Positions 16,425 to 46,655 of a stretch of DNA of 64,000 nt are shown one piece after another. The stretch comes from a virus. Its lineage: Duplodnaviria > Caudoviricetes. A program made the translations under genes and the position numbers. The DNA lies in IMG/VR virus record IMGVR_UViG_2627853856_000004, positions 1 through 64,000 of that record; one strand, written 5' to 3'. The notes below the pieces were generated by a model, which was given only the letters and a program-made list of their open reading frames with translations, was not told the origin of the DNA and did no database searches. Positions within the stretch are counted from its first letter, which is position 1, and every line of letters starts with the position of its first letter.

Positions 16425-16425
16425 T

Positions 16426-16454: not shown

Positions 16455-16500
16455 CGTAGTGCTAACTCCCTCGGGTCACTGACCGGGGAGAGGTCTAACT

Positions 16501-16692
16501 ATGCGCGTCGTTTTCCACGTCCTGATCGCCATCTCTTGCCTGATCGGCGGCCTTGCTCTGCTGCTCGCCGGTTTCAGCGGCGCAATGTCGGCAGTCCAGC
16601 AAGCAGCGATTGCGGCCATGGTCTCCGCCTGGGTGATCATCTTCCACGTTGTCAGTTCGATGCTCGATCGCCGGTTCATCGCCGAGGGCTGA
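16501..16692 (+). CDS. Small two-TM moron protein, antisense to the tail operon
   Basis: RBS GGAGAGG; 63 aa hydrophobic; fills the gap exactly. Confidence 0.65.
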   Translation: MRVVFHVLIAISCLIGGLALLLAGFSGAMSAVQQAAIAAMVSAWVIIFHVVSSMLDRRFIAEG

Positions 16693-24867: not shown

Positions 24868-25088
24868 AAGCCGCTCCGATACGCGGCGAACCGCTTGCGG
24901 CGTACCCCTGTCGCGACATTGAGCTGCGATGCGATGACCCGCTCAGCCGCCATCAGCGCGTCGGTGGACTGATAGGTGACCTCGCGCCCATCGGCGAAGC
25001 GCACCTTCATGACGCCCGATGCGATGTGCGACCGGATCGTGGTCAGGTCATTCTCGGAATAGGCCACCGTCAATTCCTCTTCAGCCAT
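24864..25088 (-). CDS. gpW-like head completion protein
   Basis: ASGVMKVRFADGREVTY between terminase and portal. Confidence 0.8.
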   Translation of the reverse strand: MAEEELTVAYSENDLTTIRSHIASGVMKVRFADGREVTYQSTDALMAAERVIASQLNVATGVRRKRFAAYRSGL

Positions 25089-28716: not shown

Positions 28717-28895
28717 GGAAGGGTTGGAAGGATTGGAAGGATAGATAGGGTTTGTGTGCGCACATCCGCGCGCACACCCGCACCCCCGCACATGGAAGCC
28801 CAGCAAGAAAACCCTTCCAACCCTTCCAGACGCGCAGAAATCCGCCATTTCACCCTTCCGTTAACCCTTCCGCCACCCTTCCACCCGGAAGGGTT
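28717..28895. repeat. Iteron-like origin (GGAAGGGTT/AACCCTTCC-type, about 9 copies in both orientations)
   Basis: Direct and inverted 9-mers immediately after the helicase stop. Confidence 0.7.
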
Positions 28896-31194: not shown

Positions 31195-31241
31195 TGTAGC
31201 GCGACAAGAGGTTCTGGAGTCTTGGACAAGAGGTTTTAGAG
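31195..31241 (+). repeat. Element end with two tandem transposase sites
   Basis: GACAAGAGGTTCTGGAG (31203) and GACAAGAGGTTTTAGAG (31225), 22-bp period. Confidence 0.85.
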
Positions 31242-31274
31242 CACTCAATCGCGACGACATGGCTCCTCTTAGCA

Positions 31275-31309
31275 GCCGTTGAAGGGTCAATCAAAGGCCC
31301 TTCAACGGC
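31275..31309. terminator. Hairpin after the last gene of the element
   Basis: GCCGTTGAAGGG-N11-CCCTTCAACGGC. Confidence 0.5.
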
Positions 31310-31321
31310 CCCTTCCGAGTG

Positions 31322-32077
31322 TTAAACCTCGGCCCCGAAGCTCGCCTTGAAGCGCGCCAGAATCCCGTCAGCCTGATCATGTCGGATAACGGTTGGCGCA
31401 AACAGAATGTCACCGCGATTCATAGTGGAGACGGACCGCTCGCCCGAATATGGGCAGGTTGCCGTATGCACCTCCTGATAATGCCGCAGGCGTACTATGG
31501 TGGCTTTGTCTATGGTGCAGGCACCGCCGGGTACGATCGTGTTATCCTGTCCATTCTTCAGGCGTGATAGAGCAACGATCGGATCGAGCAGCCGCCCAGC
31601 CATGACACTGAACTCGGCAATGAACTGCTCGACCAGGATATCATGGGCGGTTCTCACAAAGCTCTGCCAGGCCTCTCCACGGGCTTCGCTAAGCGCAGGC
31701 TTCTCCGCATAGATCGAGGCGATCTCATCATCGATTCGCGATAGGGCCTGCTCAACAAGTGAGACGCCCGCGCGCCAAGCGTCCTCAGCCGCCCGAAACT
31801 CCGCCTGTCGGTTTACTGCGGCGGATATCACGTCCCCTCCGGCTTCAACTGTCGGATCGGCAGCGATAGCAGCGACCAGCCCGTCATCGACATTAGCAGG
31901 CGGACTTGGTTTGGTGGCGTGAAGAGCAGACAGCCTACCCTGAAGCGCCGCGCGGCGGGTTTCGACCTCATCGACGCGAGATTTGATAGCGTCCTCGTCG
32001 GCGTCACGCCGCTGATACTCGCAATAGATGGCCGCGACTTTATTGAGATAAGGCGGCAGTGTGGTTGTGCTTTTCAT
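31322..32077 (-). CDS. Coiled-coil hypothetical protein
   Basis: RBS GGAG; 251 aa, heptad-rich N-terminal two thirds. Confidence 0.7.
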   Translation of the reverse strand: MKSTTTLPPYLNKVAAIYCEYQRRDADEDAIKSRVDEVETRRAALQGRLSALHATKPSPPANVDDGLVAAIAADPTVEAGGDVISAAVNRQAEFRAAEDAWRAGVSLVEQALSRIDDEIASIYAEKPALSEARGEAWQSFVRTAHDILVEQFIAEFSVMAGRLLDPIVALSRLKNGQDNTIVPGGACTIDKATIVRLRHYQEVHTATCPYSGERSVSTMNRGDILFAPTVIRHDQADGILARFKASFGAEV

Positions 32078-32104
32078 AGTTACTCCATTGTGGCTTGGGT
32101 GAAA

Positions 32105-35032
32105 TTATCGACCGGGCAGGCGCAGGCCGAAGTCTGAAAGCTGAGATGGGAGCGCGGAGGTGCCGAGTTTGGCGACGGCCGCGATCAGCTCTTGCTGGCC
32201 CGACAGCAGACGCGACAAAAGGTCGTTGCCTTCGTCAACGCCAGTGGCGGTTTCTTTCGCCGCCTGAAGAGCCTCCTGCGCCGCGCGTTGGGCCGCCTGG
32301 GCTCGATCAGTCTCAAGCTTGATGATCGCGTCCAGCTCGGTTTTAGTGCTGGAGCGGTCGCCCGTATATTCAGCCCCCGCCGTGCCGAAGAATTGCCGAT
32401 CCAATTCTAGGAGCCGGCGACGCAAATCGGCATACTGCCCCGATGCTCCCTCAATGCCCGCCTCGGCATCGGCACGCGCCTTCGCTACCTGAGCGAGAAG
32501 CGCGTTACGCTTATCGACCGCTGAGCCTTCGGCCAGCTCGCCGAAGTTGAGATCGTCTAGCAGCGCCTTCAACGGCTCGATGCGGCTGCTCAGAACCTTG
32601 TCGAACGCAGCCGCGCGCTCTTTCGCGTTGAGCTCCTCCAATTTGACCAGGTCGAAGCCATATTCTTTTGCGACGCGCAGCCTGTCCGCTGCCTGCTGTT
32701 CGAACGCCTTGAATTCGCGCTGCATGATCGAACCGAGGCCACCGAGAAGATCTTCGACCTCTTGGACCTTCAAAGCCTCGCGCACCGACTTCTCTACGTC
32801 GGGCGAAGATTGGAGCGCCTTCTGCACCTGGGCAGAGACCCCGACGATGCCGCCATCCTTGATCGCGTCGAAAACGGCCGCCATTACGGCTTCCGCTTCA
32901 CTTTTGCCGTAATTCGTTGTGCCAGCCCCCTTGGTCAGGCCTGAACCGCTTGGGTCAACGACGAACTTGTCTTTCCGCACGCCGATGGAAACTTTGAAAT
33001 CGCCGAGCTGGCCGCCGAGCTGATCTACGATCTGCTGAAGAACATCGCCGACATTGCCCGCCAGCCCCTTCGCAGCTTGGATGCGACTCTGGCTATTACC
33101 GGATGTTCCGGTGACGCCGGCTTCCCCATTGACGTTGCCGATTGTCGCGGAGCCCTTTTTGACCGTCGCGAACATACCGCCCACCAGCGAGCCGAGCATG
33201 CCGCCCGCAATCGCGCCTAGCGGCCCTGCCGCTCCGCCAAGGAAGCCTCCGAGTTTGCCGCCCACGGCCTTGCCGATCTCCGGGCCGATTAATTTTCCGG
33301 CCTCTTTGCCGAAGATGCCTCCAAGCGCTCCGCCTACCCTATTCGCGGTGCCCCCGCCGACGAGACTGCCATATTGTGAGCCCAGGCTAGCGGCCGCGCT
33401 GATCTCACCAACCTTCTCACCCCAGGCCTTAAACAGCTTGCCCATCTCGCTGTCGGGCCCGAAATTCTCCTTGAACGACGATTTGAGTTCCGCGCCGAGC
33501 TTTGCATAGCCTCGATCGAAGGAAGCGCCGCCGAACAGCTTTTCGCCCGTAGCGCTTATTTTTGAACCCGCACCGAGGTTATCTAGCGTCTTGCCCAGCG
33601 CCTTCGACACGGAAGGGAACAGGTTCTCGATCGATTTCCGAGCACCCTTGCCCAACTGCTCGCCCGCCTGATCGAGTGACGAGCTGAGCACCTGCACTGG
33701 TCCCGAGACCATATCGCGGAAGGCTTGCGACGAAGCCTTGGTCAGACCGTCCTGATATGCCTTTGCGACATCCTCATCGAGCTTAATGCGCGCATCTCGC
33801 ATGGCGCGCTCTGCCTCAAGGCGCAGCTGGTCCGCCTTAGCGTCGCTGATCATCTTCGCCTGGGTGAGTTTTTCGATATTTTTAAGCCGCTCGGCATATT
33901 CATTCTGTATCGCCGCGAGCGGGTCTAGATCCTTAAGCACTGAGCCCAGCGTGCTATCCAGGCTCTTCGGCTTCGGCGTCTTCACGTCCTTCTTGAACAC
34001 CGATGGTAATTTGCCGGTGTCGAGAGCCCTGTCGATCTCACCCGCCGTGACTTCCTTCGCAGCGGCGGCGGCAAGATCGATAACCGCCTGCCGGAATTGC
34101 TCCGCCGTTACGTTCAGGCCCTTGAAGTCAGTCTTTTCACTGAAGTTGAGCGCACTCTGCACAGCCTTCTGACGATCACCGTCGGTTTTGGCGTCGCCGA
34201 CGCGCTTAAGTTCGAAATAAGTGGCTGCATTGCGGCGGCGAGCCTCAACCGCACCGCTCAATCCGTCAGAAGCGAACCCCCTCAGGGTAGACAGAATGCC
34301 GGAGTTCTCGTTGGCGTCCTGCAGCGTCTTGCCAGCACTGGTCCGCGCCTGGCCGGCTTCGCCACGAAGATTGATCGCGGTCAGCCGGGCATTTGCGATC
34401 AGCAAAGCATTTTGCTTGTCGATTTTACCCGACGTGAGATCGAAGATGCCGCCGAGCGCACTCTGAGCGTCCGCCAGGCCGGAGCTGCCCGTTTCTGCGG
34501 CCTTGGCGGCTTCACCGGTTTCGAACAGCTTGGAAGCGAAAACGCCAGCGATGGCAACGATCGAGATGAACGCCGCGCCCAAGGGCCCTGATAGCGCCCG
34601 GCCGAGAATACCGACCTTGCCACCCATGTCGGACATCGCCGCCGTTACCTGCGCGGCTTGCTGACCGAAAATTAGAAAGCCGTTGGTCCCGGACGCGACC
34701 TGAACGCCGACATCGCTGATCTGATACCCCAGATTGCGCATACCAAATTGCGCCTGTCGCGCCGCGCCGGTCGCCTCGCGTTGCGCGGCGGCTGCCGCTC
34801 GCGAAGCCGATGACAAACGGCCGGTGGCTTCAGCAGACCGCTGCGCCTCGCCTGCCTGCCGGCGCAGCTCGGCGGCATTTGCGCTGCTGTCGGCGCTGAG
34901 CTTTCGCGTTTCGGCAGACGCGCTACCGATCGAACCCTTCAACCCGTCAATGGCAGATTGCGACGCGCGCGCCGTACCGACCAGGCCGGACCCGTCACCC
35001 TTTAGAACGACACCGAATACGAGCTGGGTCAT
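32105..35032 (-). CDS. Tape measure protein (element-encoded)
   Basis: NLGYQISDVGVQVASG...GQQ motif; C-terminal half aligns by eye with the prophage 1 TMP. Confidence 0.88.
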   Translation of the reverse strand: MTQLVFGVVLKGDGSGLVGTARASQSAIDGLKGSIGSASAETRKLSADSSANAAELRRQAGEAQRSAEATGRLSSASRAAAAAQREATGAARQAQFGMRNLGYQISDVGVQVASGTNGFLIFGQQAAQVTAAMSDMGGKVGILGRALSGPLGAAFISIVAIAGVFASKLFETGEAAKAAETGSSGLADAQSALGGIFDLTSGKIDKQNALLIANARLTAINLRGEAGQARTSAGKTLQDANENSGILSTLRGFASDGLSGAVEARRRNAATYFELKRVGDAKTDGDRQKAVQSALNFSEKTDFKGLNVTAEQFRQAVIDLAAAAAKEVTAGEIDRALDTGKLPSVFKKDVKTPKPKSLDSTLGSVLKDLDPLAAIQNEYAERLKNIEKLTQAKMISDAKADQLRLEAERAMRDARIKLDEDVAKAYQDGLTKASSQAFRDMVSGPVQVLSSSLDQAGEQLGKGARKSIENLFPSVSKALGKTLDNLGAGSKISATGEKLFGGASFDRGYAKLGAELKSSFKENFGPDSEMGKLFKAWGEKVGEISAAASLGSQYGSLVGGGTANRVGGALGGIFGKEAGKLIGPEIGKAVGGKLGGFLGGAAGPLGAIAGGMLGSLVGGMFATVKKGSATIGNVNGEAGVTGTSGNSQSRIQAAKGLAGNVGDVLQQIVDQLGGQLGDFKVSIGVRKDKFVVDPSGSGLTKGAGTTNYGKSEAEAVMAAVFDAIKDGGIVGVSAQVQKALQSSPDVEKSVREALKVQEVEDLLGGLGSIMQREFKAFEQQAADRLRVAKEYGFDLVKLEELNAKERAAAFDKVLSSRIEPLKALLDDLNFGELAEGSAVDKRNALLAQVAKARADAEAGIEGASGQYADLRRRLLELDRQFFGTAGAEYTGDRSSTKTELDAIIKLETDRAQAAQRAAQEALQAAKETATGVDEGNDLLSRLLSGQQELIAAVAKLGTSALPSQLSDFGLRLPGR

Positions 35033-36021
35033 CAGCCGGGAAACATCTCGCGTTGCGCCTGCTGATGTGCCTGGCCGAATGTCAGGCCAGACGATGCGGT
35101 CATGAGCTGCGAAGCGCGCTCAGCGACAGCGATCCGTCGCTTCGCGATCGGATCATCGGTCTGTTCCGCGAGGCTGACGAAGGTGTTGCGGTTATGCTCG
35201 GCCGCCAAAGCATCTGCGAACGACAATGTAGGATCGGCGGCGCTGGCACGCGAAGCAAGCGCGATGGCACCGACCCGCGCCGAACCGGCCTGCCCTGCTT
35301 GGCGGCGAAGATTGGCAATTTCGGCCTCTGTGGTTGCTTCCCTCATCGCTTCACCGAACGAGAGCGCCGGTCGATCAAGCTGGAGATCGACCGCGCGACG
35401 CACGCGCGCCAGGCGCGCGGCCTGCTTGGGATCGGCGCAGCCTTCGGCAAGACTGATAAAGGCCATCTGCTTGCTGGCATGCTCACGCGCCGCCTGGACT
35501 GACAATTGCGGGCGATCTGCCATGAGCATTTGCATATGACCGTGAAGCGTTGCGCGCAGCGGCGCGGCTTCGATTGTCACCGCTGATGCTGAGCGAGCTT
35601 CGCCGAATGCGAGCGTTCCCAAGCCTTTCACGGCCGGAGCGGCAGCGCCCAGGAATCCGACATGACGAAGATAATATTGGCCGCGCTTCGGGTTGCCCGG
35701 ATGCTGCGGAGGATAAAAGGACGCAGAGACTTTCCGATATAGCCCCTTGCGCACCGCCTCAGCCATTTCAGGCACCATCTCCGATGGATCGGCAACAATA
35801 TGCTCGCCGTCCATTCTTAGGCCGCCAATCCAGCCATAAGCCGGAGCGTCCATCTTAGGATGTCCCACGACTATTGGGGCCGGGTCAGATTTCGGATCGT
35901 AAGAGGCTACGATGCCGGCGAGATCAGTGGCGCTAAAGGAGACTTTCTCGCCTTCCATGCTCTCAAAGCTACCTGCACGAAATATCTTGATCGGCGAATA
36001 TGAAGCGGCCGGAGAGATCAT
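35032..36021 (-). CDS. Mu-like protease/scaffold (I/Z-type) with repeated C-terminal motif
   Basis: IFRAG, APIVVGHP, PAYGWI, YRKVSASFY, YLRHVGFLGAAAPAVKGL. Confidence 0.85.
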   Translation of the reverse strand: MISPAASYSPIKIFRAGSFESMEGEKVSFSATDLAGIVASYDPKSDPAPIVVGHPKMDAPAYGWIGGLRMDGEHIVADPSEMVPEMAEAVRKGLYRKVSASFYPPQHPGNPKRGQYYLRHVGFLGAAAPAVKGLGTLAFGEARSASAVTIEAAPLRATLHGHMQMLMADRPQLSVQAAREHASKQMAFISLAEGCADPKQAARLARVRRAVDLQLDRPALSFGEAMREATTEAEIANLRRQAGQAGSARVGAIALASRASAADPTLSFADALAAEHNRNTFVSLAEQTDDPIAKRRIAVAERASQLMTASSGLTFGQAHQQAQREMFPG

Positions 36022-36728
36022 TGTTCGGTTTCCTTGGAAGAGGTGTCGGGCGGGCAGACCTGGCCAAGCCAGAGATCGACGATTTCCTGCCGCGCCTGCT
36101 CAATGGCCGGTCCCTCGGCGCCGGCTTCGATGAGGGCGCCAGTCGCAATGTCGGCGGCGTCTTCCACAAGGCAAAGCTCGCGGGGCCTGGGCAGTGGTCC
36201 AGGATTGATGCCGAAGCCCTCGGTTGAATTGTTGACCAGTTCGGACGTGTAGGGCCGCGTTGATCCAATGATCACAGCGGCCGTAGAGATACTGATTTGA
36301 CCAACCCGCGCAGCGGCGATGACGCTAGCTCGCTTTGCTCGCCGTATGGAGGCATGTGCCGTCGCGATTTGCAGTCGGCACGAAGCGTATTGCTCAATCA
36401 GGATTTGGAAGGCCTGGTCGCCGACCAGCTCCGCAACGCGATGCGGCCTGTTGGACAGGCGCGCCGGTATGTAGATTTCTTGCCCGCCGAACCGCTCGCA
36501 GAGCAGCAATACGTTCGCTGCGCCGATATACTCGGCCAATTCCCGCATTTGCGGCCCCCAGGTCCGGTCGATCCGCACGTTGAGCGGGATCGGAAAGTCT
36601 GAGAGCTTCGGTAATAGATGGCGCGGGATTTGATCGTCATTGACGGCGTTGGGGGGACCGCCAGCGGTCGGTAACGCCCCATTTCCTGTCGATGCAGATT
36701 GTGCCAACATCTTGCCGCCCCGTCGCAT
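36018..36728 (-). CDS. Mor/C-like transcription activator (paralogue 2)
   Basis: ELAEYIG...ERFGGQEIYIP; start uncertain. Confidence 0.75.
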   Translation of the reverse strand: MRRGGKMLAQSASTGNGALPTAGGPPNAVNDDQIPRHLLPKLSDFPIPLNVRIDRTWGPQMRELAEYIGAANVLLLCERFGGQEIYIPARLSNRPHRVAELVGDQAFQILIEQYASCRLQIATAHASIRRAKRASVIAAARVGQISISTAAVIIGSTRPYTSELVNNSTEGFGINPGPLPRPRELCLVEDAADIATGALIEAGAEGPAIEQARQEIVDLWLGQVCPPDTSSKETEQ

Positions 36729-36795
36729 TGCCCGGTGCGATGATCATGCGGCGAGGGAATTGAGATGCGCGCGTGCCAGTGCGCGGGCAACGAAA

Positions 36796-37275
36796 TCAGG
36801 CTTCGGCGAACATATCGATTTGGCGAGGGTCAACCTTGCGGCCGATCGCGGGCGGTTCGGCTCCTAGCCCTTCCTGGGTTCGGTTGACCAGCTTCGAAGC
36901 ATAGTCGCGCCGAACTCCCATGATACGCGCCGCGTGCGCCACGGTCAGCATGTCGCTGCGCACCGCCGCGATAATACTCGCGCGTCGTGCGACATTCAAA
37001 GCATAGCGCGCAGTGGGAATAGCCAGTGTCAGGCGACCGTAAACGAAACTGATCGCACGTGATTTCGCCGCACCGATCAGCGGGTGAAACGGATTCTTGG
37101 CGGCATCGATCGGAATGTAGACATCCTGCCCGCCATAACGCTCGCTGATAATAAGCGTGTCATATGCCCCAATATGGTCGGCCATCTCGCGCATTTGCGC
37201 GCTCCAGCCGGGGCCAGGCTGGACATCCCGAGGGATCGGGATGTCCGCCAGTTCTTTATAGGGAAAGCCGTCCAC
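36796..37275 (-). CDS. Mor/C-like transcription activator (paralogue 1)
   Basis: EMADHIG...ERYGGQDVYIP plus C-terminal HTH. Confidence 0.75.
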   Translation of the reverse strand: MDGFPYKELADIPIPRDVQPGPGWSAQMREMADHIGAYDTLIISERYGGQDVYIPIDAAKNPFHPLIGAAKSRAISFVYGRLTLAIPTARYALNVARRASIIAAVRSDMLTVAHAARIMGVRRDYASKLVNRTQEGLGAEPPAIGRKVDPRQIDMFAEA

Positions 37276-37280
37276 AGCGC

Positions 37281-37745
37281 TCAGCCCTGGCCTTGGCTGC
37301 TCTTGTCGCGCTTGATCAGCACATAGAACGGAAGGTCGAGCGTCAACCGCTCGATCACCGACATATCACGTTCTAGAATCCTGATACCGCCGAGCGTCGG
37401 CAAGAGGCGCTCATCGCCTCGGCCGGCATGGATACCGAGCCCGTCACGGCCCGCATTCCACGCGTCGCGGGCTTGGCCCGATTCCGGCGTCAGGGATATC
37501 CAGCGCCGGCCCACGCCGACGACGGGGCGAGGCAGGCGCACGACGCGGGTTCGCATAAACCGCCCCAATGGGGTGTGACCTCGTGGCCTGATCGGGTCGC
37601 AGTCGGGATTGTCGGCGCTAGGGGTGCCTTGACCGAGGCAAGGGCAAATGAAAAGCGGAGAGGCGGAGCCGGGAAGAAATAGCGACAGCGCACCCGCCTG
37701 GCTGCGATCGTCGGGAAGAACGATCTTGATGCGCGCGCCGGTCAT
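37281..37745 (-). CDS. YkuD/L,D-transpeptidase-like protein lacking the catalytic Cys
   Basis: GHTPLG...GLGIHAG...PTLGGIRI. Confidence 0.6.
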   Translation of the reverse strand: MTGARIKIVLPDDRSQAGALSLFLPGSASPLFICPCLGQGTPSADNPDCDPIRPRGHTPLGRFMRTRVVRLPRPVVGVGRRWISLTPESGQARDAWNAGRDGLGIHAGRGDERLLPTLGGIRILERDMSVIERLTLDLPFYVLIKRDKSSQGQG

Positions 37746-38284
37746 AGCGCAGCCCTCCGTCGCGCCAGGAGATCGGCAAGCCGATCTTTAAGCAACTCGG
37801 TCCGCTCTGCTGCGCTCAGCCCACTAGGAACATCCTGATGCCAGCCATGACGTTCAGCCATAGCCTTCAGTGCCTCGATCAGCCGAAAGCCCTGCGCATG
37901 ATTGGCCCAGTGCAGCCGATCGACACCGACCTGTCGCTTGCAAAAGGCCTCTAGCGCGCGCTCGGAGGGATCATTGATAGCGCCGAGCTGATGCAGCGAT
38001 ATCCACATCGCGCGCGCCTTCCGAGCGATAGGATGGCTGGCCGGCCCAGGCCGAGTTGTCGCGCGAACCTGTGATCGAAAACCGAGCCGTTCAAACTCGG
38101 CCACTATGGCGACCAGCTGACCAGCATCACACTGACCGGCGCTGCGCTTACCGGTTATCCTCTCCAGTACGGCGCGATAGTCGTCATCGTCCAGGCCGAG
38201 CGCCTTGCTTGCGAGGTGTACCTTGCCCAGAAGTGCGCGACGATCTGGCGCAACACTCGTATTGTGCGACCTGATCTTAGCCAT
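37742..38284 (-). CDS. gemA: GemA (Mu gp16, DUF1018) regulatory protein
   Basis: VHLASKALGLDDDDYRAVL...TGKRSA; ARAMWISL; LIEALKAM. Confidence 0.9.
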   Translation of the reverse strand: MAKIRSHNTSVAPDRRALLGKVHLASKALGLDDDDYRAVLERITGKRSAGQCDAGQLVAIVAEFERLGFRSQVRATTRPGPASHPIARKARAMWISLHQLGAINDPSERALEAFCKRQVGVDRLHWANHAQGFRLIEALKAMAERHGWHQDVPSGLSAAERTELLKDRLADLLARRRAAL

Positions 38285-38431
38285 TGGACGCCTCCCCGAA
38301 AATTTGACGCTGGAGGCCTTTTGGGCCGCTTAGGGGCGTCAGCCCCACAAATGCGGAGCGACCCTCATGGGAAGGCTTCCCAGCGCCATCGACGATAAGG
38401 AAGGCCGCACGCTCTCCAATGTCCTGTGCCA

Positions 38432-39382
38432 TCAGCGGCCTCCCGCACGAAAATTGCGCCGCTTGGCCGCATCGCGCAGATGCGCGATCGAAATAGGCTG
38501 GCCCGCGCCCGAAGCTGTCAGGCTCGCAATCTCCAATATATGGGTCAGTTCACGCAGCGCGCCCGGCAATGCGCCGATCTTGCGCAGGAATGTGGCTTGC
38601 TCGGCATCGGTGACGCTCCAGGCCGACAGCAGCGCCTCAATATCGCCGGGCAGCGGTTCATATTGAACGTGCCGGTATGAGAACCGGCTGCTCACCTGAG
38701 CTAGTGCGCTTTTCCGACTGTCGAGCTGGCCGACAACCTTGTCATTGCCAAGCAACGCGACGCCCACCTTCGTGCGATCGTGCCAGCCTCGAATTTCGTT
38801 GAGCGCCTTGTCGTTGAGCTCTTGGGCTTCGTCGATGATCAGCAGGCCTTTCTTGCCGCTGATGTGCGCTCGAATCTTTCGCGAGAGCTGTTGCGGGCTG
38901 CCGGTGATTTCACCGAGGCCGATTGCCTCGGCGACTTCCGATGCCATAGTCGCAACGCCCGCCGTAGCGGGCGACATCGTAGCCAGCCATACGTTCGGAT
39001 CGGCGTCGGCCAGGCGCTCCGCGACACGGGTTTTGCCGATGCCGGGCGCGGTTACGATCAGCACGATGCGGCCCGTCTGCGCATATTGAAGCAGGCCAGT
39101 AAGTTGCGTCGCCGTCTGCGTCTCATACCAGCTCGGCACCGCAGGCGCTTGAGCGCCGATCTTTGCCTGGACATCAAGGCGAGCGCGGTAGGCGAGCACT
39201 TTGCCCGCGACCTTCTCATTGCTCCCTCGGTAGCTGCCGCTCGCGAAGAGTGAGAGCGTGCTGTCGGCAACGTCGGTAAGCTTGCCCAAGGCGGGCCAGC
39301 TCAGCGTTTCATCTTCCTTGTGCGTGACTAGCCAGGCGCGCGCGCCCTCAATGTCCACGCTGTTGTCGATTACGATCTGCAT
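38432..39382 (-). CDS. MuB-like AAA+ transposition ATPase
   Basis: N-terminal HTH, PGIGKT, LIIDEAQ, LLGN, SSR. Confidence 0.9.
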   Translation of the reverse strand: MQIVIDNSVDIEGARAWLVTHKEDETLSWPALGKLTDVADSTLSLFASGSYRGSNEKVAGKVLAYRARLDVQAKIGAQAPAVPSWYETQTATQLTGLLQYAQTGRIVLIVTAPGIGKTRVAERLADADPNVWLATMSPATAGVATMASEVAEAIGLGEITGSPQQLSRKIRAHISGKKGLLIIDEAQELNDKALNEIRGWHDRTKVGVALLGNDKVVGQLDSRKSALAQVSSRFSYRHVQYEPLPGDIEALLSAWSVTDAEQATFLRKIGALPGALRELTHILEIASLTASGAGQPISIAHLRDAAKRRNFRAGGR

Positions 39383-39526
39383 GCTACCTGCTCCTTGCTC
39401 CTATGGACGGGAGTAAAAGGCCGCGTCGGGGTTGCAGCCCCGGCGCGGCCGACATCATCGGCGCTATCGCGCGGATGAACTGGAAAGCGCCGAACGGCGC
39501 GATGTTGAAGAGATCGGCGGGCATGA

Positions 39527-39766
39527 TCAGCCGTCTCTCTTCGAACTGAGCGCGATCGGCGCTCCGTTCGGAACAGCCTTCAGCAGTTCCGAAACGTCGT
39601 CCGGCGAAAGCCCTGCCCGCATTATGTCGGCCGCAATCAAGCGACGATCGGCGAGCAGCTCAGCGGCCAAGTCGCGGCGATCGTGACGTCGAATCAGCTC
39701 CGCGACGGCTTCAAGATAGCCGCTCAACTCCGCGCGCCGTAGAACTTCTGCCATATCGATCAGCAC
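39527..39766 (-). CDS. Small hypothetical protein (paralogue B)
   Basis: AELSGYLEAVAELIRR resembles the upstream ORF. Confidence 0.55.
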   Translation of the reverse strand: MLIDMAEVLRRAELSGYLEAVAELIRRHDRRDLAAELLADRRLIAADIMRAGLSPDDVSELLKAVPNGAPIALSSKRDG

Positions 39767-40041
39767 GGCAGATCTCCCGCGAGGCGAAGCAGCGCGATAT
39801 ATTTGCCGAGCCGCGCGCGTGCGGCCCACGGCAAGAGGTTCCCGGTCAGATACGATCGCCGCACCATTGCCTCGGGATCGACCAGCGATGCCGCCAGGGC
39901 GGTCGGGGCTCCACGTCGCAGGAGCGTATCGATCGCGGCGAGGTAGCCCGCCAACTCCGCTGCTTGGGTGCGCGCAATATCGCCCGAAAGATCGGCGCTA
40001 TCGATCAAGATATTATCGTTGGATGTAGTCGGGCCTGCCAT
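39760..40041 (-). CDS. Small hypothetical protein (paralogue A)
   Basis: AELAGYLAAIDTLLRR. Confidence 0.55.
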   Translation of the reverse strand: MAGPTTSNDNILIDSADLSGDIARTQAAELAGYLAAIDTLLRRGAPTALAASLVDPEAMVRRSYLTGNLLPWAARARLGKYIALLRLAGDLPC

Positions 40042-40048
40042 AAACAGC

Positions 40049-42004
40049 TCAGTCCCCCACCGCGCGCAGCCGAGCGCCGCGCAGGAGGTTGTCCAGAAAT
40101 GGCTGTTCAACGCCCGCTTCAACCGGCATTGAAGCGGGCTTCAACGCCGCCGCAGTTTGCCCGCGATGCCGCACAGGACGAACGACGGATGCGGTCGGCG
40201 TGGGAGATGGCTGGCGCGGCTGCGCATATGCCTCTGCGACCTTCTCCGCGACTACGAGATCATGCGCCCGCTCGGCCTCGCGAAATTTGCGACGCCAATC
40301 GGCCTCTTGTTTCGCCCGTCGAGTAGCACCGGCTCGATCGAAGAAACCCGTCGCTTCAATGACGGGCGCTGCACAGACATACTCGCCTGTCGTCCGGTAG
40401 ATGTGGATTTCGCCGTGGAGATTGTCGGGATCGAACCGAACCGTGACCTTCTTGCCGGCGAAATTGTGTAATTCCGGCGTCCAGTAGCGGTTTCCATCGA
40501 GGGTGACGGCTCCATTATGACGGTCGCAACTACGATCCTCGGCGACAAGAAGGGCCAGGCGCATCTGTTCGGCCGTCGCCTTTCCAATCGGCGCGGTTTC
40601 ATAGGAAGCCGAGAAAGCTGCATCGAAGCTCGCGCCGTTCGCTGCCTCGCTTCTACGACCGGCGCGCGCGTTCAGTGCTGCGACGCGACGCCGGACATGC
40701 TCGGCAAATTCGTCGAGCGGAATGGCGCGCTCACGGTAATTTTCCGGCTTCGCATCGGGTTTGTTGCCAGTGTAAGCGCCGGACATCGCGGGATGCTTGG
40801 CGATGTCGTCGCACATATCACGCCAGGCGCGCTCAATCGGCTTCGAAGATCCGCGATACGGCAGCGCCCAATGGATACGAATGCCCAACGCGGTCAGCAC
40901 GCCGGTCGGATCGGTATCCTTGATCTTAAACCTATAGCGGGATTTCGCGCCGCCAGTGATCGCCTTCGATGCGAAGGCGCGCCCATTGTCGAGCACACAT
41001 TCGAGGGGAATGCCCCAGTCGTCAAACAAGTCGGCGAAGGCAAGGCGGGTCAACAACGTGTTTTCGGTCTCACCGATCCGCCACGCCAGCAGCTTGCGGC
41101 TATAGATATCCTGGATGCCGACCATGACCGGCCGACCAACCCGGCCATCGGGCCAGCGAACGAACACATCGAACATATGGCCGTCGATATTGACGGCCTT
41201 CATCGCGTGAAGGTCTTTGACGGTCCGCGATTGCGCCGGGACAGAGCGACGTAGTGCCTCCCGTCCATTCCGCTTCGCGATCTTCAGCGACCGCTCAACC
41301 TCTTTCTCTAGCCGGCGCTGGAGGGTGCGCGGGTGCGGCAGCTCCATGCCACGCGGTGCGGCATAGTCCTCCAAAAGCCTGTAATAGCAGGACGCGAAGG
41401 TCGGCTGCTCAGGCCGAAGATAATCGGACTTGAGTATCTGCCACGCGTTGGCGTCGATCTCGACTTCTTTGCCGCCGCCAACGCGTCGCGGAGCGAGAAA
41501 GGGCAGCCGATCACTGAGCGCAACCGATTTGATCTCGGCGAACCAGTTGTGAATCGTGGCGGGCGAACCGCCCCATCGAACAATAGCCTCGCGGATCGCA
41601 ATCGTTTTGGTTGCGCCGCTTTCAACAGCCCGTTCGATGTCGAGAATGATCGCAAGACGGCGCTCGGCCTCTGCCTTTACGCCTTCCGATTGCCGCGCAA
41701 ACCAGTCCCATGCCTGCTCGACCTGGGGCGCATCGTTGGCAGCATCGGGCATGGAAGAAAGCGCGAGCTTCGTTTCCAGCGCTTGGCGCGCTGGTGCCGG
41801 CAGAAGATCAATGTGATATTCGAGCCCGCCACCGCGCCCCACGCGCTTCCGCGCGAGCGGAAGCCCGTAATCGCCACGGCGGACCGCCCAGCGCTCAACC
41901 GCGGCTAGATCAGATACCTGCCGCTTGTTCCGCGGCAAGCCCGGAAGGCTCAGCTCGGCCAGTTCGGCGGCTGAGAGCCATTCAACGGACGGCGCGGCGC
42001 TCAA
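40049..42004 (-). CDS. MuA-like DDE transposase
   Basis: Mu DNA-binding N-terminus (GRGGGLEYH), NIDGH, LDNGRAF, KPIER, RFDPDNL. Confidence 0.95.
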   Translation of the reverse strand: MSAAPSVEWLSAAELAELSLPGLPRNKRQVSDLAAVERWAVRRGDYGLPLARKRVGRGGGLEYHIDLLPAPARQALETKLALSSMPDAANDAPQVEQAWDWFARQSEGVKAEAERRLAIILDIERAVESGATKTIAIREAIVRWGGSPATIHNWFAEIKSVALSDRLPFLAPRRVGGGKEVEIDANAWQILKSDYLRPEQPTFASCYYRLLEDYAAPRGMELPHPRTLQRRLEKEVERSLKIAKRNGREALRRSVPAQSRTVKDLHAMKAVNIDGHMFDVFVRWPDGRVGRPVMVGIQDIYSRKLLAWRIGETENTLLTRLAFADLFDDWGIPLECVLDNGRAFASKAITGGAKSRYRFKIKDTDPTGVLTALGIRIHWALPYRGSSKPIERAWRDMCDDIAKHPAMSGAYTGNKPDAKPENYRERAIPLDEFAEHVRRRVAALNARAGRRSEAANGASFDAAFSASYETAPIGKATAEQMRLALLVAEDRSCDRHNGAVTLDGNRYWTPELHNFAGKKVTVRFDPDNLHGEIHIYRTTGEYVCAAPVIEATGFFDRAGATRRAKQEADWRRKFREAERAHDLVVAEKVAEAYAQPRQPSPTPTASVVRPVRHRGQTAAALKPASMPVEAGVEQPFLDNLLRGARLRAVGD

Positions 42005-42930
42005 CGCTGCGCCTCCTCGTCGAGCAATCGCCGCAGCTCGGCTTTCATGCCCGGTGTCATGCTCTTGACCAGCTCGACGGTCGCCAGTCGCTTGCGCCTG
42101 AGATCGAGCCGATCCCAGTTCATGAAGAACCGCTGATAAAAGGCGTTCGCTTCGACGGCTTCCGTTCGCGTGGCCTTGCTCGTGCTGATGCCGAGCTGCA
42201 CCATTGCCGCATCCACCGAAGCGAAATCCGGGTCAGCCAGGATGATCTCGATCACCTGGCGTCGGCCATCTTCGCCGACGATGCTGGCGATCTTCGCCAT
42301 GTTCGTGAGCTGCTCGCCGAGCCGGTGAGTGTTCAGGGCTTCGGCAAGGTCAAGAAACGGCTCGGCGATCCTACGATAAATCACGCGATAATGGCGCAAC
42401 GACCGCTCGGAAATTCCCGCCCTCTCGGCGGCAATGGCATCCCATTTTGATGCTACGGCAATCGTGGCCGTAGCATCGTGAGGGAACGCATCGGCGTTCC
42501 AACGGGCTCTGGCACCACGCGTCTGGCGGCTTTCTCCAGCCCGATCGCCGTACTGTTCAGCTTCGGCGATCTTCGCCAGCTCATTCAAAAAAATTGCGCG
42601 CTCAATCGGCCGCAACTCACGGTGATCAATATTCTCCGACAGTTCGAGGCGGCGCAACTCGACAGCGGCAGTGCTGCTGTCCGCAATTTGGATAGCGTCG
42701 ATAGCGCTCAAGCCTGCCAATTCGGCACCGCGTAACCGGTGAAGACCAGCAACGAGCGTCCAGGCCAGCGCGGCACGATTGCCATTGCGGCGAACGTGAA
42801 TGGGATCGTGCTGACCCTCGGCGGCCATGCTGGCCCCGAGCCGCGCTGCGTGATCCGCGTGGTAGAATCCTACGCGCTCACCGACAGCTATGTTGGCAAG
42901 CGGCAATCGCAAGATGGCGCGCGCGGTCAT
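42001..42930 (-). CDS. ParB N-terminal domain protein
   Basis: LVAGLHRL, ELSENI motifs. Confidence 0.8.
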   Translation of the reverse strand: MTARAILRLPLANIAVGERVGFYHADHAARLGASMAAEGQHDPIHVRRNGNRAALAWTLVAGLHRLRGAELAGLSAIDAIQIADSSTAAVELRRLELSENIDHRELRPIERAIFLNELAKIAEAEQYGDRAGESRQTRGARARWNADAFPHDATATIAVASKWDAIAAERAGISERSLRHYRVIYRRIAEPFLDLAEALNTHRLGEQLTNMAKIASIVGEDGRRQVIEIILADPDFASVDAAMVQLGISTSKATRTEAVEANAFYQRFFMNWDRLDLRRKRLATVELVKSMTPGMKAELRRLLDEEAQR

Positions 42931-43433
42931 GGCTGTGCTCGCCAGAACTGATCGAGCGCAATCCAGAACCGATGAATCGACGATTTTGGAGGAACACGCC
43001 CTGGCCCGAACTGAGCAGCAAGCATTTCCTGAAGGCGACGCACCGGCATCTCGCGGTGCCAGCTGATCAACGCCCGGCGCACCTCCTGATCCGGCCAGAA
43101 ATGGGGCTTCTTTACGATGAGATGCCACGCCGCTTCGACAGCCTCGACCCTCCGGCGCGACAGTTGATTAACTGCGCTGGAATCGAGCGACCGGAGCCCC
43201 ATCACGATATATGCGATGTCGGCTCCGGTAGTGGCGATTGCGCGGAGATAGTCTGCATCGGGCGAACGTCGCCCGGCCTCATATGCGAGCTGCGAATTAA
43301 GGCTCTGACCGCCCAGCGCGGCTAAAGCGACCGGTGCAAAGCCCAGACGCTCGCGCTCCAGACGCAGCCGATCGCCTCCCGCCCGTCGGGCCTCAACCAT
43401 TCTGGCCGCATGGCTCGCCCCCGCGCTCGCCAT
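42927..43433 (-). CDS. XRE HTH protein
   Basis: GDRLRLERERLG...YEAGRRSPDADYL. Confidence 0.75.
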   Translation of the reverse strand: MASAGASHAARMVEARRAGGDRLRLERERLGFAPVALAALGGQSLNSQLAYEAGRRSPDADYLRAIATTGADIAYIVMGLRSLDSSAVNQLSRRRVEAVEAAWHLIVKKPHFWPDQEVRRALISWHREMPVRRLQEMLAAQFGPGRVPPKSSIHRFWIALDQFWRAQP

Positions 43434-43678
43434 TAGTTCGCCTTTGCGATCCGCATGGCTTCCGACAACGGCGTGTTGTCGGCGACAATTATTCCGTCCT
43501 TGAGGCCGAGAATGACCGCGACTTTATGCGCATCCCCGCGTGCACCCTTCAGCTTGCCCGAAAGAACGCCACGCACGACCGGAACCGGCACGTCGAGCTC
43601 TCCGGCTACATCTACGGCAGTCTTTCCAATTCGCGCCAAACGGTCGCGAACCTCTTCCACTTGGAGTAAACTTGCCAT
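43433..43678 (-). CDS. Ner/Cro-like DNA-binding protein (BcepMu gp16-like)
   Basis: VLSGKLKGARGDAHKVAVILGLK, divergent from the repressor. Confidence 0.8.
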   Translation of the reverse strand: MASLLQVEEVRDRLARIGKTAVDVAGELDVPVPVVRGVLSGKLKGARGDAHKVAVILGLKDGIIVADNTPLSEAMRIAKAN

Positions 43679-43755
43679 AACGTAACTGCTCCATGGTTCG
43701 GATATCAGCACTATGGTGGCGAAATCAGAACCATGCAAGCGAAAGTGAGCAAACA

Positions 43756-44421
43756 TTGTCTATTGGGGCGCGTCTGAAGGCAGAGCGATTGAGGCTTGGG
43801 CTCAGCCAGACCTATTTTGCTCAGATAGCCGGTGCATCAAAGAGTGCTCAGATTAGCTGGGAGAAGGATGAATCGTCGCCTACCGCGAAGGCATTGGTGT
43901 CGTTTCGCGAGGTGGGGGCCGACATCCCGTTTATATTATTTGGCGAACGCCGATCGGGGCAATCGGCGGAAGTCGATTCGCATTATGCAGCCAAGGTTCA
44001 CGAACTAAAGGACCAAGTCGTCAATCCTGGCAAATATATGGCCGATGATGCGCTATCGCAGGCCGCCTCTTTCCACATTGTCCAGCGAGCTGCGGACGCC
44101 CTGGGACGCATAGCAACTTCGACCGACCCGCTAATCAGCGATCAAACCAAAGCGCTGGCTGACGATATCCTCCGCATTCATTGTAATGACGCAGCTGCGG
44201 CAGAGCGGCGGTCTGCCCGGTATGCAGCTGTCGTCGCAGATCGTAATCGTGCGGAGCACGATCTCCGGGATGCGCTAGGAGGCGTTGGGCTGAAAATTGG
44301 TCCTGACTTAAATCAAGCCTTACTGACGTTAATCGTGGATTATCGGATTGATGCTCGGGAGATACTTGGCCTTCTTCAAGCGTTGAAACTAGAATTAAAG
44401 GCTAACGCCGATGCTGCCTGA
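43756..44421 (+). CDS. XRE repressor of the Mu-type element
   Basis: SIGARLKAERLRLGLSQ...WEKDESSP; start uncertain. Confidence 0.8.
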   Translation: MSIGARLKAERLRLGLSQTYFAQIAGASKSAQISWEKDESSPTAKALVSFREVGADIPFILFGERRSGQSAEVDSHYAAKVHELKDQVVNPGKYMADDALSQAASFHIVQRAADALGRIATSTDPLISDQTKALADDILRIHCNDAAAAERRSARYAAVVADRNRAEHDLRDALGGVGLKIGPDLNQALLTLIVDYRIDAREILGLLQALKLELKANADAA

Positions 44422-44788
44422 TGGTGTCACCTTGGCCGACATTGCTGCCGATCTTAGTAAGCCCGAACGGTATGTCCGGCTTGCCCTCGCGAACATGCTT
44501 GCCGCCGAGAAGGAGCATGGCCCGCTTGCTCTCCGCATTGGGAAAATGGGTACGGGGCAAATACCCCACTATCGGCTCGATACCGTCAGCGAAATCGAAT
44601 TACTCGATGCGTCGCTCACTCATCATTTCCCGGTGCAATCCTTTAACGGTCGAAACCATTTGGCGTTGGTTACCGAAGGTGAGGAGTCGGATATCCTCCG
44701 CGAAGAGCATTGGAGCCAAGGCAAAATGACCTGCTTAGAGCTTGCTGAATTGCTTGGTCAGATCCGAGCCAAGGGGAGACGAAGATAG
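44411..44788 (+). CDS. Hypothetical cargo protein
   Basis: Overlaps the repressor stop; 125 aa. Confidence 0.6.
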   Translation: MLPDGVTLADIAADLSKPERYVRLALANMLAAEKEHGPLALRIGKMGTGQIPHYRLDTVSEIELLDASLTHHFPVQSFNGRNHLALVTEGEESDILREEHWSQGKMTCLELAELLGQIRAKGRRR

Positions 44789-44906
44789 AAACCGTTGCGA
44801 TCTGGCGTTCATCCGCTATATTATTTTGGTCATTCGGCAGCTCCGCCGCGTCGATCTAATTTGGCCTGGGATGACACGGGCCCGAAGAAAGACGAAATAG
44901 GCAAAT

Positions 44907-44934
44907 CAGGCCCCGCTTTGGCGGGGCCTTTTTA
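44907..44934 (+). terminator. Rho-independent terminator
   Basis: AGGCCCCGC-TTTG-GCGGGGCCT-TTTT. Confidence 0.75.
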
Positions 44935-45014
44935 TTCGGATATTCTCAATCAACCCGTTAAGCTATCGCGTGCCGGTCTGACAGCCGCGCGAGACGATTT
45001 GAACGAGGTGAGAG

Positions 45015-45317
45015 ATGCGCGAGACAAAAGAACACCGAAGCGATGGCGATCTGCTGAGCGACGCAACGGCTCGCCTACATCACGCGACTGGCGGACTCAA
45101 TTTTCACTTGGAGATGTTTGGTAACGAGTTGGCTAAGCGCGAGGGTTATCGCGAGTACAAGGCCATGGACGCCATTCATTTTTACCTGATGACCAAGCAT
45201 GGTTGGCTACCGCGTGATATCCGATCGATGTCATTCGACGATTTGCGCTTCGCCCTAGGCGAGGAAATGGCTGGCTGGACGCTTCCGCACAACCTGCGCA
45301 ATAGTTATCCGGGATAA
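45015..45317 (+). CDS. Hypothetical cargo protein
   Basis: RBS GAGGTG; 100 aa. Confidence 0.65.
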   Translation: MRETKEHRSDGDLLSDATARLHHATGGLNFHLEMFGNELAKREGYREYKAMDAIHFYLMTKHGWLPRDIRSMSFDDLRFALGEEMAGWTLPHNLRNSYPG

Positions 45318-45669
45318 ATCTAAAACAGCGCCAGCGACCGCGAGGCGTTCAGGTCGCTGGCGGACAATCTGCGGCCGACCGTCTTCGTGGCTTGCCGTTG
45401 CCGCTGATTGGCAGAAATTCCCTCCCAGTTTCGCTAATGCCCGACCGTGCTGCATCGTGGCTACGCTCGCGGCAGAACGTTTATTACGTTGGGTTTTAAA
45501 GATTTCCCGCCGCCCAGCTCACCGCATTTCGGTTCAGCCAAGTTAATTATAGGATTCTGGAGAGCTGGAAGCCAAAAGCCGGTCGTTGAAAGCCAGTTGA
45601 AAGCGCAGTTTTCCGCCATTAAGAGGTCTTTCAAAGGTCGCGGGCGGCAAGCCTCTTAGAACGCGCAAA

Positions 45670-45865
45670 CTCCAGCTTCTCTTGTCAAAATCGCGCGGAT
45701 TCTGCCTTTGACTCCAGACACAGCATTTAACGGCAGATTTTGCCGGTAGTGCCGTACAGGATGCCTGATATGCCCGAATTACGGGGCGATTTTCGCCGAC
45801 CCAGTTTGACCCCGCATACCCCGGCATGCCCCGGATTAGAGTCTAGATTCTCTTGTCATCTCACA
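45670..45865 (-). repeat. Element end with two spaced transposase sites
   Basis: Reverse complements GACAAGAGAATCTAGAC (45841..45857) and GACAAGAGAAGCTGGAG (45670..45686); terminal CA. Confidence 0.8.
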
Positions 45866-46569
45866 GCGGACGCCGGCGTGCCGCCGGCGGCGCCGGTTTG
45901 TTTGGCGAGCGCACCGCCTGCGGCGGCCGCCTTCGGCTTGCGCTCGCGCAGGGCTTGGACGAGCGCTGCCGGCGCATCGACGGGGTCGATATCATGCTGC
46001 CCGCCCCGCCAGCGATAGCGGCCCTCGCTGCCATCCTCGCGATACAGCACGGACGGGGGCGCGACGATGTAGCCGCCCTTTCCGCGCACATCGACATGCC
46101 GCGGCAAATTGCCCCGGTTGATGATCGGGTCGCCTTCGGGCTGCCGATAGATGACATGCACCCCGTCAGACTGGGTTATTGAGGTGAGCGATACGGGCAG
46201 TTCGCAGCCGATCTGCTCTTCGGTCGCCGCCTTCAGGCTGATCAGGTCGAATATCTCGCCGGTCGACTCATCGACGCGCGGATCGAAGTCGAGCGCGAAC
46301 CACTTATTGCCGCCCATCGCCAGGCCGATCATCGCCTGCGGATGCTGGCGCCACCAGGCGCGAATGCGCCCCTCATCGGTGGTCGCGTCGTTACAGCCTT
46401 TCCCGGTATAGGGCGACTTGGCCTTGTACAGCTTCGGCTTCGGCCCATCGGCGGTCTGCACCGTCAGCGTCTCGTCGCGCTCACGGCATGGGAACACCTT
46501 CCATCCCCGCCGCGCATAACGCAGCGCCGCCGTACACATCGGCGACGGCAGCTGCTCCACAACACCCAT
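45856..46569 (-). pseudogene. N-terminal part of the split gene: bifunctional primase-polymerase (Prim-Pol) domain
   Basis: ALRYARRGWKVFPC, ATTDE...WW, LDFD, HVIY, DVRGKGGYIVAPPS; stop codon supplied by the element end. Confidence 0.9.
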
Positions 46570-46655
46570 CGAAAACACCCCGCCCCTTGAGATACGCTGC
46601 AATCAGGCCGTCTTTCCGGCTGTCACGCCCCTGCGCGGGCGTTGGCGGCAATCGG

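Follow-up and report, generated by a model that had tools for sequence, protein, structure and literature searches.

A compact Mu-type element with its own tape measure protein, nested in a siphovirus prophage, as a candidate transposable phage satellite

What is an element that carries a full Mu-type transposition module and two late-gene activators, and of the genes for a virion only a protease/scaffold and a tape measure protein (TMP)? The question is raised by positions 31195–45865 of a stretch of 64,000 nucleotides (the window; positions 1 to 64,000 of the IMG/VR virus record IMGVR_UViG_2627853856_000004, Duplodnaviria; Caudoviricetes), which corresponds to positions 7379–71378 of contig C12 in a genome of 4,631,488 bases (G000). 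A first-pass annotation, made from the sequence alone, had suggested a phage satellite that amplifies by transposition and parasitises or redirects the morphogenesis of a helper phage. We describe here a lineage of compact Mu-type elements to which the window element belongs, and which we consider to be candidate helper-dependent transposable phage satellites. This reading is probable, and is based on the conservation of the compact plan, the monophyly of the lineage, and a satellite-type cargo that is matched to a resident phage.

The boundaries of the element were read directly. It is 14,671 bp long, starts with TG (31195–31196) and ends with CA (45864–45865), and is flanked by two identical copies of the target duplication GCGGA, at 31190–31194 and 45866–45870. 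The end next to the late genes (S end, 31195–31240, plus strand) carries MuA-type sites at 31203–31218 and 31225–31240, and the repressor-side end (c end, 45671–45865, minus strand) carries them at 45671–45686 and 45842–45857, so that the plus-strand sites starting at 31203 and 31225 are inverted relative to those at 45671 and 45842. A search of both strands of the genome with the pattern GACAAGAG-N2-(T/G)(C/T)T(A/G)GA gave four matches, all of them at the element ends, against a chance expectation that we estimate at about 0.3. The bare 8-base core of the site occurs 63 times in the genome; the specificity resides in the full pattern. The element thus has the MuA-family DDE transposase, the MuB ATPase, the inverted end sites and the 5-bp duplication of a Mu-type element.

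The element splits a primase gene on the minus strand into a C-terminal part (28894–31194; phrog_1156 positions 211–838) and an N-terminal part (45871–46602; positions 10–199), and excision in silico of the element with one copy of the duplication gives a single open frame of 1010 amino acids. The element is a clean Mu-type insertion in the primase gene of another prophage, of siphovirus type, and the insertion looks fresh. The ends, the duplication, the four sites and the nesting that were proposed at first reading are therefore all borne out. The host prophage is tailed, with a large terminase (25070–27181), a portal (23356–24867) and tail fibre genes. It also encodes a 691-residue fusion of protease and major head protein (21284–23359; phrog_133 / phrog_4523), and one of its tail fibre genes, for 1479 residues (5076–9515), lies within a stretch of 70–72% GC.

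The late genes of the element all lie on the minus strand. Two Mor-family activators, mor159 (36796–37275; phrog_836, E = 1.5e-14) and mor236 (36018–36728; phrog_836, E = 3e-16; Mor hidden Markov model (HMM), 1.5e-39), are 38% identical to each other. They are followed by a Mu I-type head protease of 329 residues with a C-terminal scaffold-like repeat domain (35032–36021; phrog_976, E = 4e-61), by the TMP of 975 residues (32105–35032; PF06791, 33.8 bits against a cut-off of 30.2; phrog_24, phrog_8892), and by orf251 (31322–32077), a coiled-coil hairpin with a small β domain, which is the last gene before the end of the element. The coupled junctions reported at first reading are confirmed by the coordinates of the open reading frames (ORFs): the stop of mor236 overlaps the protease start in ATGA (36018–36021), and protease and TMP meet in TGATG (35030–35034). 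The protease aligns end to end with 18 members of its family, including the family C-terminal motif, and its C-terminus is therefore native to the family; it contains an internal repeat (residues 137–232 against 220–325).

Other virion genes were sought in several ways. None of the element ORFs matches a terminase, portal, major capsid or tail tube family, and in six-frame searches none of a panel of 111 terminase and portal proteins from full-length relatives matches the element. A further six-frame search used the 56 ORFs of a Mu-like prophage on contig C116 of the same genome (positions 22000–66000), and matched only genes that are already named here; of its capsid and tail proteins, none apart from the protease and the TMP matches the element. 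The late operon thus consists of the protease/scaffold, the TMP and the coiled-coil ORF only, as first described, and the element is not a complete Mu-like virus, as no terminase, portal, capsid or tube of its own was found. The absence of visible gene debris also stands: the six-frame searches were otherwise empty and there are no fused or broken ORFs. These features, with the compact plan of the closest relatives, are not those of a defective remnant.

The C116 prophage has small and large terminase, portal, F, protease, capsid and a tail set, and is the only candidate helper seen in this genome. Its similarity to the element is uneven. MuA is 27% identical, GemA 34% and ParB 35%; Mor (compared with mor159) is 50% identical, the homologue of the element's orf154 also 50%, and the N-domain of the protease 53%. 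The two TMPs are 85% identical in amino acid sequence over 954 residues and 78% identical in nucleotide sequence, and the DNA likeness begins at the start codon. The dN/dS ratio between the two copies, which had been asked for at first reading, is 0.08 at a dS of 1.34. A search of 1.84 billion cluster representatives with the TMP found 2103 relatives, of which the best (84%) is the C116 protein itself; among the 150 relatives listed, no other is above 48%. By its sequence, the TMP of the element is specifically matched to the phage in the same cell, as expected if it must work with the tail parts of that phage.

The organization of the C116 prophage (approximately 22.9–65 kb; loci L005 and L006) is unusual in its own right. 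The early genes, terminase, portal and F lie on the minus strand from about 44.5 to 23.3 kb, and the protease, capsid and tail genes on the plus strand from 44.6 to 65 kb; this layout in two blocks may reflect an inversion, two elements or misassembly. A cluster of 13-base repeats at C116:23155–23290, with two copies in each orientation and about 60 bp between the inner copies, sits between a methyltransferase gene and small ORFs, and a similar pair occurs at positions 2052–2086 of the 3.6-kb contig C90. These repeats may be operators or Mu-type ends.

We then looked for relatives of the element, by searching 5.8 billion protein clusters and by scanning contigs from metagenomes and IMG/VR with alignments of MuA and of MuB. 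The closest relative is in Rhizorhabdus wittichii DC-6, where MuA (HY78_15670) is 84% identical to that of the window, the protease (HY78_15705) 71% identical over its full length, and the last ORF (HY78_15715) 53% identical to orf251. The DC-6 locus tags run in steps of five, which places six genes between MuA and the protease and one gene between the protease and the last ORF. This is the layout of the window, and terminase, portal, F and capsid genes would find no space in it; we infer that the single gene between protease and last ORF is the TMP. The contig scans gave four further loci, L054 (L051 is the same element), L226, L227 and L086, whose MuB proteins are 61–64% (L054, L226, L227) or 68% (L086) identical to that of the window. 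No terminase, portal or capsid was found in these four loci, and each of them has a TMP.

Of these, L054 is complete at 13,214 bp, with ends TGTAATGGGACA...TGTCCCGCTACA and the duplication GCCGC. Its gene order is ParB, MuA, MuB, GemA, orf101, Mor and orf198 (orf198 matches orf190 of L226 at 36%), followed by a protease (PF10123/phrog_328), a TMP of 931 residues, a second Mor-like gene and a helix-turn-helix (HTH) ORF. L227, taken from an IMG/VR prophage call, is 15,380 bp long and is bounded by the duplication CCCCT. After Mor it has a weakly tail-chaperone-like ORF, an unassigned ORF and a tail completion protein (phrog_26), and then a TMP of 523 residues from another family (phrog_973), a second Mor-like gene and a PF10123 protease. 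L226 is a contig of 14,012 bp with its late end at 13895, which is almost identical to that of the window, and with the other end off the contig; its late order is Mor, two unassigned ORFs, a TMP of 1154 residues and a second Mor-like gene. L086 is a fragment (an 8.1-kb contig, GC 0.57) in which Mor is followed by 167 bases and then by a TMP at which the contig stops. The search for the same gene order at other insertion sites, which had been proposed as a check, was thus productive: DC-6 has that order by its locus tags, and L054 and L227 are bounded by duplications other than that of the window.

Taken together, virion-building genes are absent and the compact plan is kept across DC-6, L054, L226, L227 and L086. 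A TMP is present in all five clade members with a readable late region, and a head protease in three of the four elements with a full late region and in DC-6, drawn from two PHROG families (976 and 328). The TMPs are 975, 931, 1154 and 523 residues long, the shortest belonging to a different PHROG family. The window TMP is approximately 38% identical to those of L054 and L226 over the C-terminal 400 residues, and is unrelated to that of L227. Such wide differences imply that the cargo has been exchanged while its kind and its position were kept, which, as far as the sequences go, is hard to reconcile with neutral decay.

The compact elements also differ from their full-length relatives in the number of Mor genes. 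The window, L054, L226 and L227 have 2, 2, 2 and 3 of them, compared with exactly one in 82 of 82 full-length loci, as counted with an HMM based on ten Mor sequences, most of them those of the compact elements themselves, and with most full-length loci covered only to 10 kb past MuA. The 82 loci include the C116 prophage and six of the seven relatives that were fetched from other genomes; the seventh (G407) is unclassified and also has one Mor. The Mor-like genes that lie just after the TMP in L054, L226 and L227 are 32–43% identical to one another.

To place these elements we classified loci by a tblastn match to the C116 terminase within 11 kb after MuA, which gave 81 full-length loci, 61 unclassified loci (mostly short contigs) and 5 compact loci including the window and DC-6. 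In a FastTree phylogeny of 132 MuB rows, which did not include L054, the window, L086, L226, L227 and two short unclassified contigs form a clade with support 100. An IQ-TREE phylogeny of 48 MuB rows, comprising seven clade rows including L054 and every second locus classed as full-length, separates five compact elements and two short contigs from 41 full-length loci with an SH-aLRT of 100. The MuB compact clade holds no full-length phage, and the nearest full-length prophages lie outside it. In the MuA tree, a clade with support 100 unites seven rows, DC-6 among them, and its nearest outside neighbours are the full-length loci L052, L126 and L135; the MuA of L086 falls outside the compact clade, and a grouping of all eight was rejected (approximately unbiased test, p = 0.001), which suggests that L086 exchanged its transposase gene between lineages.

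According to the first-pass annotation, the satellite idea would be undermined if the close relatives were full-length Mu-like prophages from which this element differs by unique deletions. What we found is that the closest relative, DC-6, and the rest of the clade are themselves compact. The plan shared by DC-6 and the MuB clade rules out a unique random deletion, and the comparison of sequences argues that the compact plan is maintained.

Shortened elements of other kinds occur outside the clade. At the marine locus L062 (10700–14675), the N-terminus of a terminase small subunit is fused with a tail assembly protein in one ORF of 437 residues, directly before a tail protein gene; L062 has the look of a genuine product of internal deletion, and the compact clade shows nothing similar. 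L247 has a tail sheath gene (15323–16729) at a distance of 8.3 kb past MuA, the interval being free of terminase matches; this may be a further example of shortening in a Mu-like element, here of myovirus type. L053, L116, L197 and others outside the clade contain large ORFs without a PHROG match, and are therefore unclassified.

The full-length relatives provide a clear comparison. MuA proteins 50–58% identical to that of the window occur in seven other genomes of the bacterial family, and all seven have a large terminase and the usual order of early genes, terminase, portal, F and tail. Two of these prophages could be delimited, at 39,675 bp (duplication CTGCA) and 32,891 bp (ACCAG), and have ends very like those of the window element; the late-gene (S) end of the window element has near-identical counterparts in L226 and in the full-length prophages G416:C3, G287 and G332. 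The three complete compact elements measure 13.2–15.4 kb and the full-length prophages 32.9–39.7 kb, a ratio of 0.33–0.47, and these sizes may recall those of small-capsid satellites.

If the compact elements are satellites, their life cycle might run as follows. On derepression, the element would multiply by replicative transposition, and Mor would switch on the short late operon. The extra Mor paralogue may activate the late genes of the resident helper, for which the delta protein of P4 acting on P2 offers a model. The helper would provide terminase, portal, capsid and tail parts, and the TMP of the element would be built into helper-derived tails, as for the PLE satellites; in some members it would be accompanied by a tail chaperone-like protein and a tail completion protein. 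Assembly of the helper capsid could be the target of the protease/scaffold, possibly with small heads as the outcome, suited to a genome about one third to less than one half the length of the helper's. The TMP and the protease/scaffold are present and under purifying selection, and they may redirect helper morphogenesis, as the TMP does in the PLEs. The compact elements would then constitute a new satellite family, in which Mu-type transposition replaces the integrase, resident or co-infecting Mu-like phages are exploited, tails are chimeric through the satellite's own TMP, and a second Mor activates the helper. For this fuller proposal we regard the case as evenly balanced.

Several observations weigh against the satellite reading. 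The element is present in a single copy in this genome. C116, the candidate helper and the only other Mu-like phage in the genome, has a MuA only 27% identical to that of the element and none of its end sites; the C116 genes stand in two divergent blocks while relatives such as G287 are collinear, the ends of the C116 prophage were not found, and the prophage may be rearranged, defective or misassembled. The HGC motif is lost in orf154 (see below), which could be decay. The gene order in DC-6 is deduced from locus-tag numbers and not from DNA. L226 has no recognisable protease, and the TMP of L086 comes directly after Mor, so that of the cargo proposed at first reading the TMP holds throughout, and a protease/scaffold of the element's own holds for the window, L054, L227 and DC-6 and not for those two. 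The lineage is also rare, with three loci in one IMG/VR scan of 2.9 million contigs plus a few metagenome contigs, and no compact-lineage member in two overlapping samples of 400 genomes each, one of the order and one of the family. In the family sample, which was searched with MuB, the closest match reached 48% identity. At the DNA level, no relatives were found in the phage collection, and 40 related genomes gave two short matches at chance level. Scans of genome contigs with MuA alone and with an orf251 alignment, and of IMG/VR with an orf251 alignment and with the protease alone, gave no matches. The satellite interpretation first offered is thus upheld as regards a maintained compact lineage and a satellite-like TMP cargo, and only in part as regards a scaffold that is general to the lineage.

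The most direct alternative is that the element is a giant transposon that needs no helper. In that case virion formation was lost long ago, the element persists only by transposition within cells and by riding on other vehicles, and the TMP, protease and extra Mor serve other ends, such as defence or competition by spoiling the assembly of phages that invade or are resident. A full transposition module with intact ends can move without a helper, the element sits inside another prophage and inactivates its primase, and the C116 phage differs in its ends and has a distant MuA. Interference with tail assembly by genes borne on prophages and islands has reportedly been described (PMC11364771). 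PLE11 carries such a factor, according to PMC12987554. We nevertheless regard this alternative as doubtful. None of 10 element proteins has a weighty match in PADLOC (the best is E = 0.001, 17 bits), which speaks against a role in defence, and the TMP is no truncated decoy: it is a full-length near-copy of a TMP of working type, under purifying selection (dN/dS 0.08). Mor-driven late operons and sizes of 13–15 kb have been kept, for which a pure transposon has no reason, and members of the lineage carry building parts in the form of a chaperone-like gene and a tail completion gene.

The other alternatives concern the history of the element. It could be a defective full-length Mu-like prophage that recently lost its head and most of its tail genes by deletion and is now decaying, as deletion derivatives do exist among the relatives (the fused ORF of L062), and both the loss of the motif in orf154 and the single genomic copy would fit. 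The same plan is found in DC-6 (84%, 71% and 53% identity for MuA, protease and last ORF) and in L054, L226, L227 and L086, however, all of them in a single clade that holds no full-length member; fused ORFs, broken ORFs and debris are absent, the protease keeps its native C-terminal motif, and TMP and protease have been replaced at the same position by other families, unlike in neutral decay. A simple decaying deletion derivative is therefore unlikely, and we give a recent deletion only a small probability. Smaller still is the probability that the element is half of a two-part phage genome, with the rest in, for example, the structural block of C116, or is an artefact of assembly. That block (plus strand) is apart from, and divergent to, the block with the early genes, terminase and portal, and the C116 TMP is 85% identical to that of the element, as a divided genome might have it. 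Against this, both Mu ends and a perfect 5-bp duplication stand in a gene that is otherwise intact, on a contig of 121 kb. MuA, MuB, Mor, protease and TMP are all present a second time on C116, making the two sets paralogous and not complementary halves, and duplications also flank L054 and L227, which lie in other sequence surroundings.

The early region of the element is that of a Mu-like phage, and the repressor, Ner-like, ParB, MuA, MuB, GemA and two Mor genes named at first reading each have Pfam or PHROG matches. All named genes apart from the repressor lie on the minus strand. From the repressor side the order is repressor, Ner-like protein, a further HTH ORF, ParB-like protein, MuA, two small ORFs and MuB, followed by an ORF of 51 residues, GemA, orf154, mor159, mor236, protease, TMP and orf251. 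The HTH repressor candidate (43693–44421, plus strand; HTH_3 and several repressor PHROGs) is divergent from the early operon. The other genes of this region are those for the Ner-like HTH protein (43433–43756, minus strand; phrog_925, E = 3e-10), the ParB-like protein (42001–43128, minus strand; phrog_3264, E = 2e-27), the MuA transposase of 651 residues (40049–42004, minus strand; PF02914, PF09039, PF09299, PF02316), the MuB ATPase of 316 residues (38432–39382, minus strand; PF09077, AAA_22), which served as the marker of the compact clade, and GemA (37742–38284, minus strand; PF06252, E = 2e-35). Two small tandem ORFs of 93 and 75 residues (39527–40041, minus strand), which are weakly alike (52% over 27 residues), lie in the gap between MuA and MuB; this gap measures 667 bp in the window, compared with 68–76 bp in the rest of the compact clade.

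Between the repressor and the end of the element, approximately 1.4 kb (44411–45830) contain four small ORFs without a Pfam, PHROG or PADLOC family, and the accessory ORFs on the plus strand (44411–45317), which have no assigned function, belong to this region. The GC content is 0.556 at 44001–46000 and 0.60–0.64 elsewhere in the element, and the lower-GC stretch may be accessory cargo. Rfam gave no match in 31000–46100 at E ≤ 0.01.

Between GemA and mor159 lies orf154 (37281–37745, minus strand), an L,D-peptidase-like protein of the YkuD/Tlde1 fold, whose Atlas structure has TM values of 0.67–0.81 to YkuD clusters, mostly viral. This family is common in phage lysis modules. At the position of the HGC motif of its 50%-identical C116 homologue, which we take to hold the catalytic cysteine, orf154 has LGG, and it may be an inactive or repurposed peptidase. 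The statement that the element has no recognisable lysis cassette consequently needs qualification: one gene of predicted lysis type is present, with its HGC replaced by LGG.

The last gene, orf251 (minus strand), has no Pfam, PHROG or PADLOC family. Its model consists of a long helical hairpin and a small β domain (pLDDT 74), a Foldseek search of the PDB gave no match at E ≤ 0.001 and generic coiled coils only, and a single homologue, that of DC-6, was found among 3422 scored candidates. A Psu-like identity was considered because of an Atlas feature match, scoring 0.95, to a cluster with PF07455 in 79% of its members, and was dropped: the best Pfam match is HDPD at 16 bits, below the cut-off, the best PDB sequence match is JetA at E = 0.07, and the Foldseek result gives it no support either. 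The possibility of chimeric ORFs, with the protease C-terminus, the ends of mor236 or orf251 derived from other C116 genes, was also rejected, since the comparisons gave only low-complexity and coiled-coil noise.

It remains to compare the compact elements with known systems. Full-length Mu-like prophages of siphovirus type, such as those of G287, G257 and G416:C3, have ends of the same family (TGTAGCG.GACA.., the sites being paired) and duplications of 5 bp, and their early genes are likewise arranged as ParB, MuA, MuB, GemA and Mor, with MuA 50–58% identical. They differ in their size of 32.9–39.7 kb and in having terminase, portal, F, capsid, a full tail and one Mor, compared with the protease, TMP, one orphan ORF and two Mor genes of the 14.7-kb window element. 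Laboratory mini-Mu and Mud elements consist of Mu ends with A and B and have no morphogenesis genes; they are amplified by transposition and packaged by the headful machinery of a helper Mu together with flanking host DNA. They are engineered deletions, whereas the window element belongs to a natural conserved lineage with a late operon (TMP, protease/scaffold and second Mor).

The satellite families compared here integrate and replicate in a different way. The P4-like, PICI, cf-PICI and PLE families combine a site-specific integrase with a replication initiator or primase of their own. P4 has a genome about one third the size of that of P2, activates the late genes of its helper through delta, and has a size-determining scaffold and the small helical late protein Psu; it uses an integrase and a primase/helicase. 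The likeness of the window element to P4 lies in the role that we infer for the second Mor, and a likeness of orf251 to Psu is not supported. Integration of the PLEs is site-specific and their replication starts at an origin that they carry themselves, whereas among the element ORFs scanned against Pfam and PHROGs we found no integrase, primase or replicase family, and the element has MuA and MuB.

The closest parallel in cargo is with the PLEs of Vibrio cholerae. According to PMC12987554, the TMP, tail chaperone and hub encoded by PLEs replace those of the helper in chimeric tails, and a PLE without its TMP transduces poorly; tmp genes are also predicted in other satellites, including cf-PICIs, and the legend of one figure points out integrases, as predictions, in PLE-like elements and cf-PICIs. 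Published satellites thus carry their own TMP, which makes the cargo of the element satellite-like, and L227 resembles the PLEs further in pairing its TMP with a chaperone-like gene and a tail completion gene. The EPIP satellites of Mycolicibacterium, as described in PMC12822802, are 11 kb long, lack most virion genes, encode a TMP and a scaffold, and form particles with smaller heads and altered tails; TMPs are there said to be otherwise almost unheard-of in satellites, and the satellite families that are named integrate with recombinases. According to the same text, EPIPs differ from the compact elements in having a serine integrase, a terminase small subunit and a capsid protein, no transposase, and actinobacterial hosts. 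In the full-text literature, whose coverage leaves out most subscription journals, we found no description that links satellites to Mu-type or replicative transposition.

If the compact elements are indeed satellites amplified by transposition, they would multiply and spread in a way that is new among satellites. On the model of laboratory mini-Mu, they would move neighbouring host genes at high frequency and would be natural generalised transducers, each transfer carrying adjacent host DNA because Mu-type packaging is headful from the end of the element. The lineage would be an independent, alphaproteobacterial case of satellites with their own TMP, and, being compact and natural, would lend itself to studies of the benefit that a satellite draws from having a TMP and a protease/scaffold of its own. 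The proposal is directly testable because at least one member resides in a cultured, named strain, R. wittichii DC-6.

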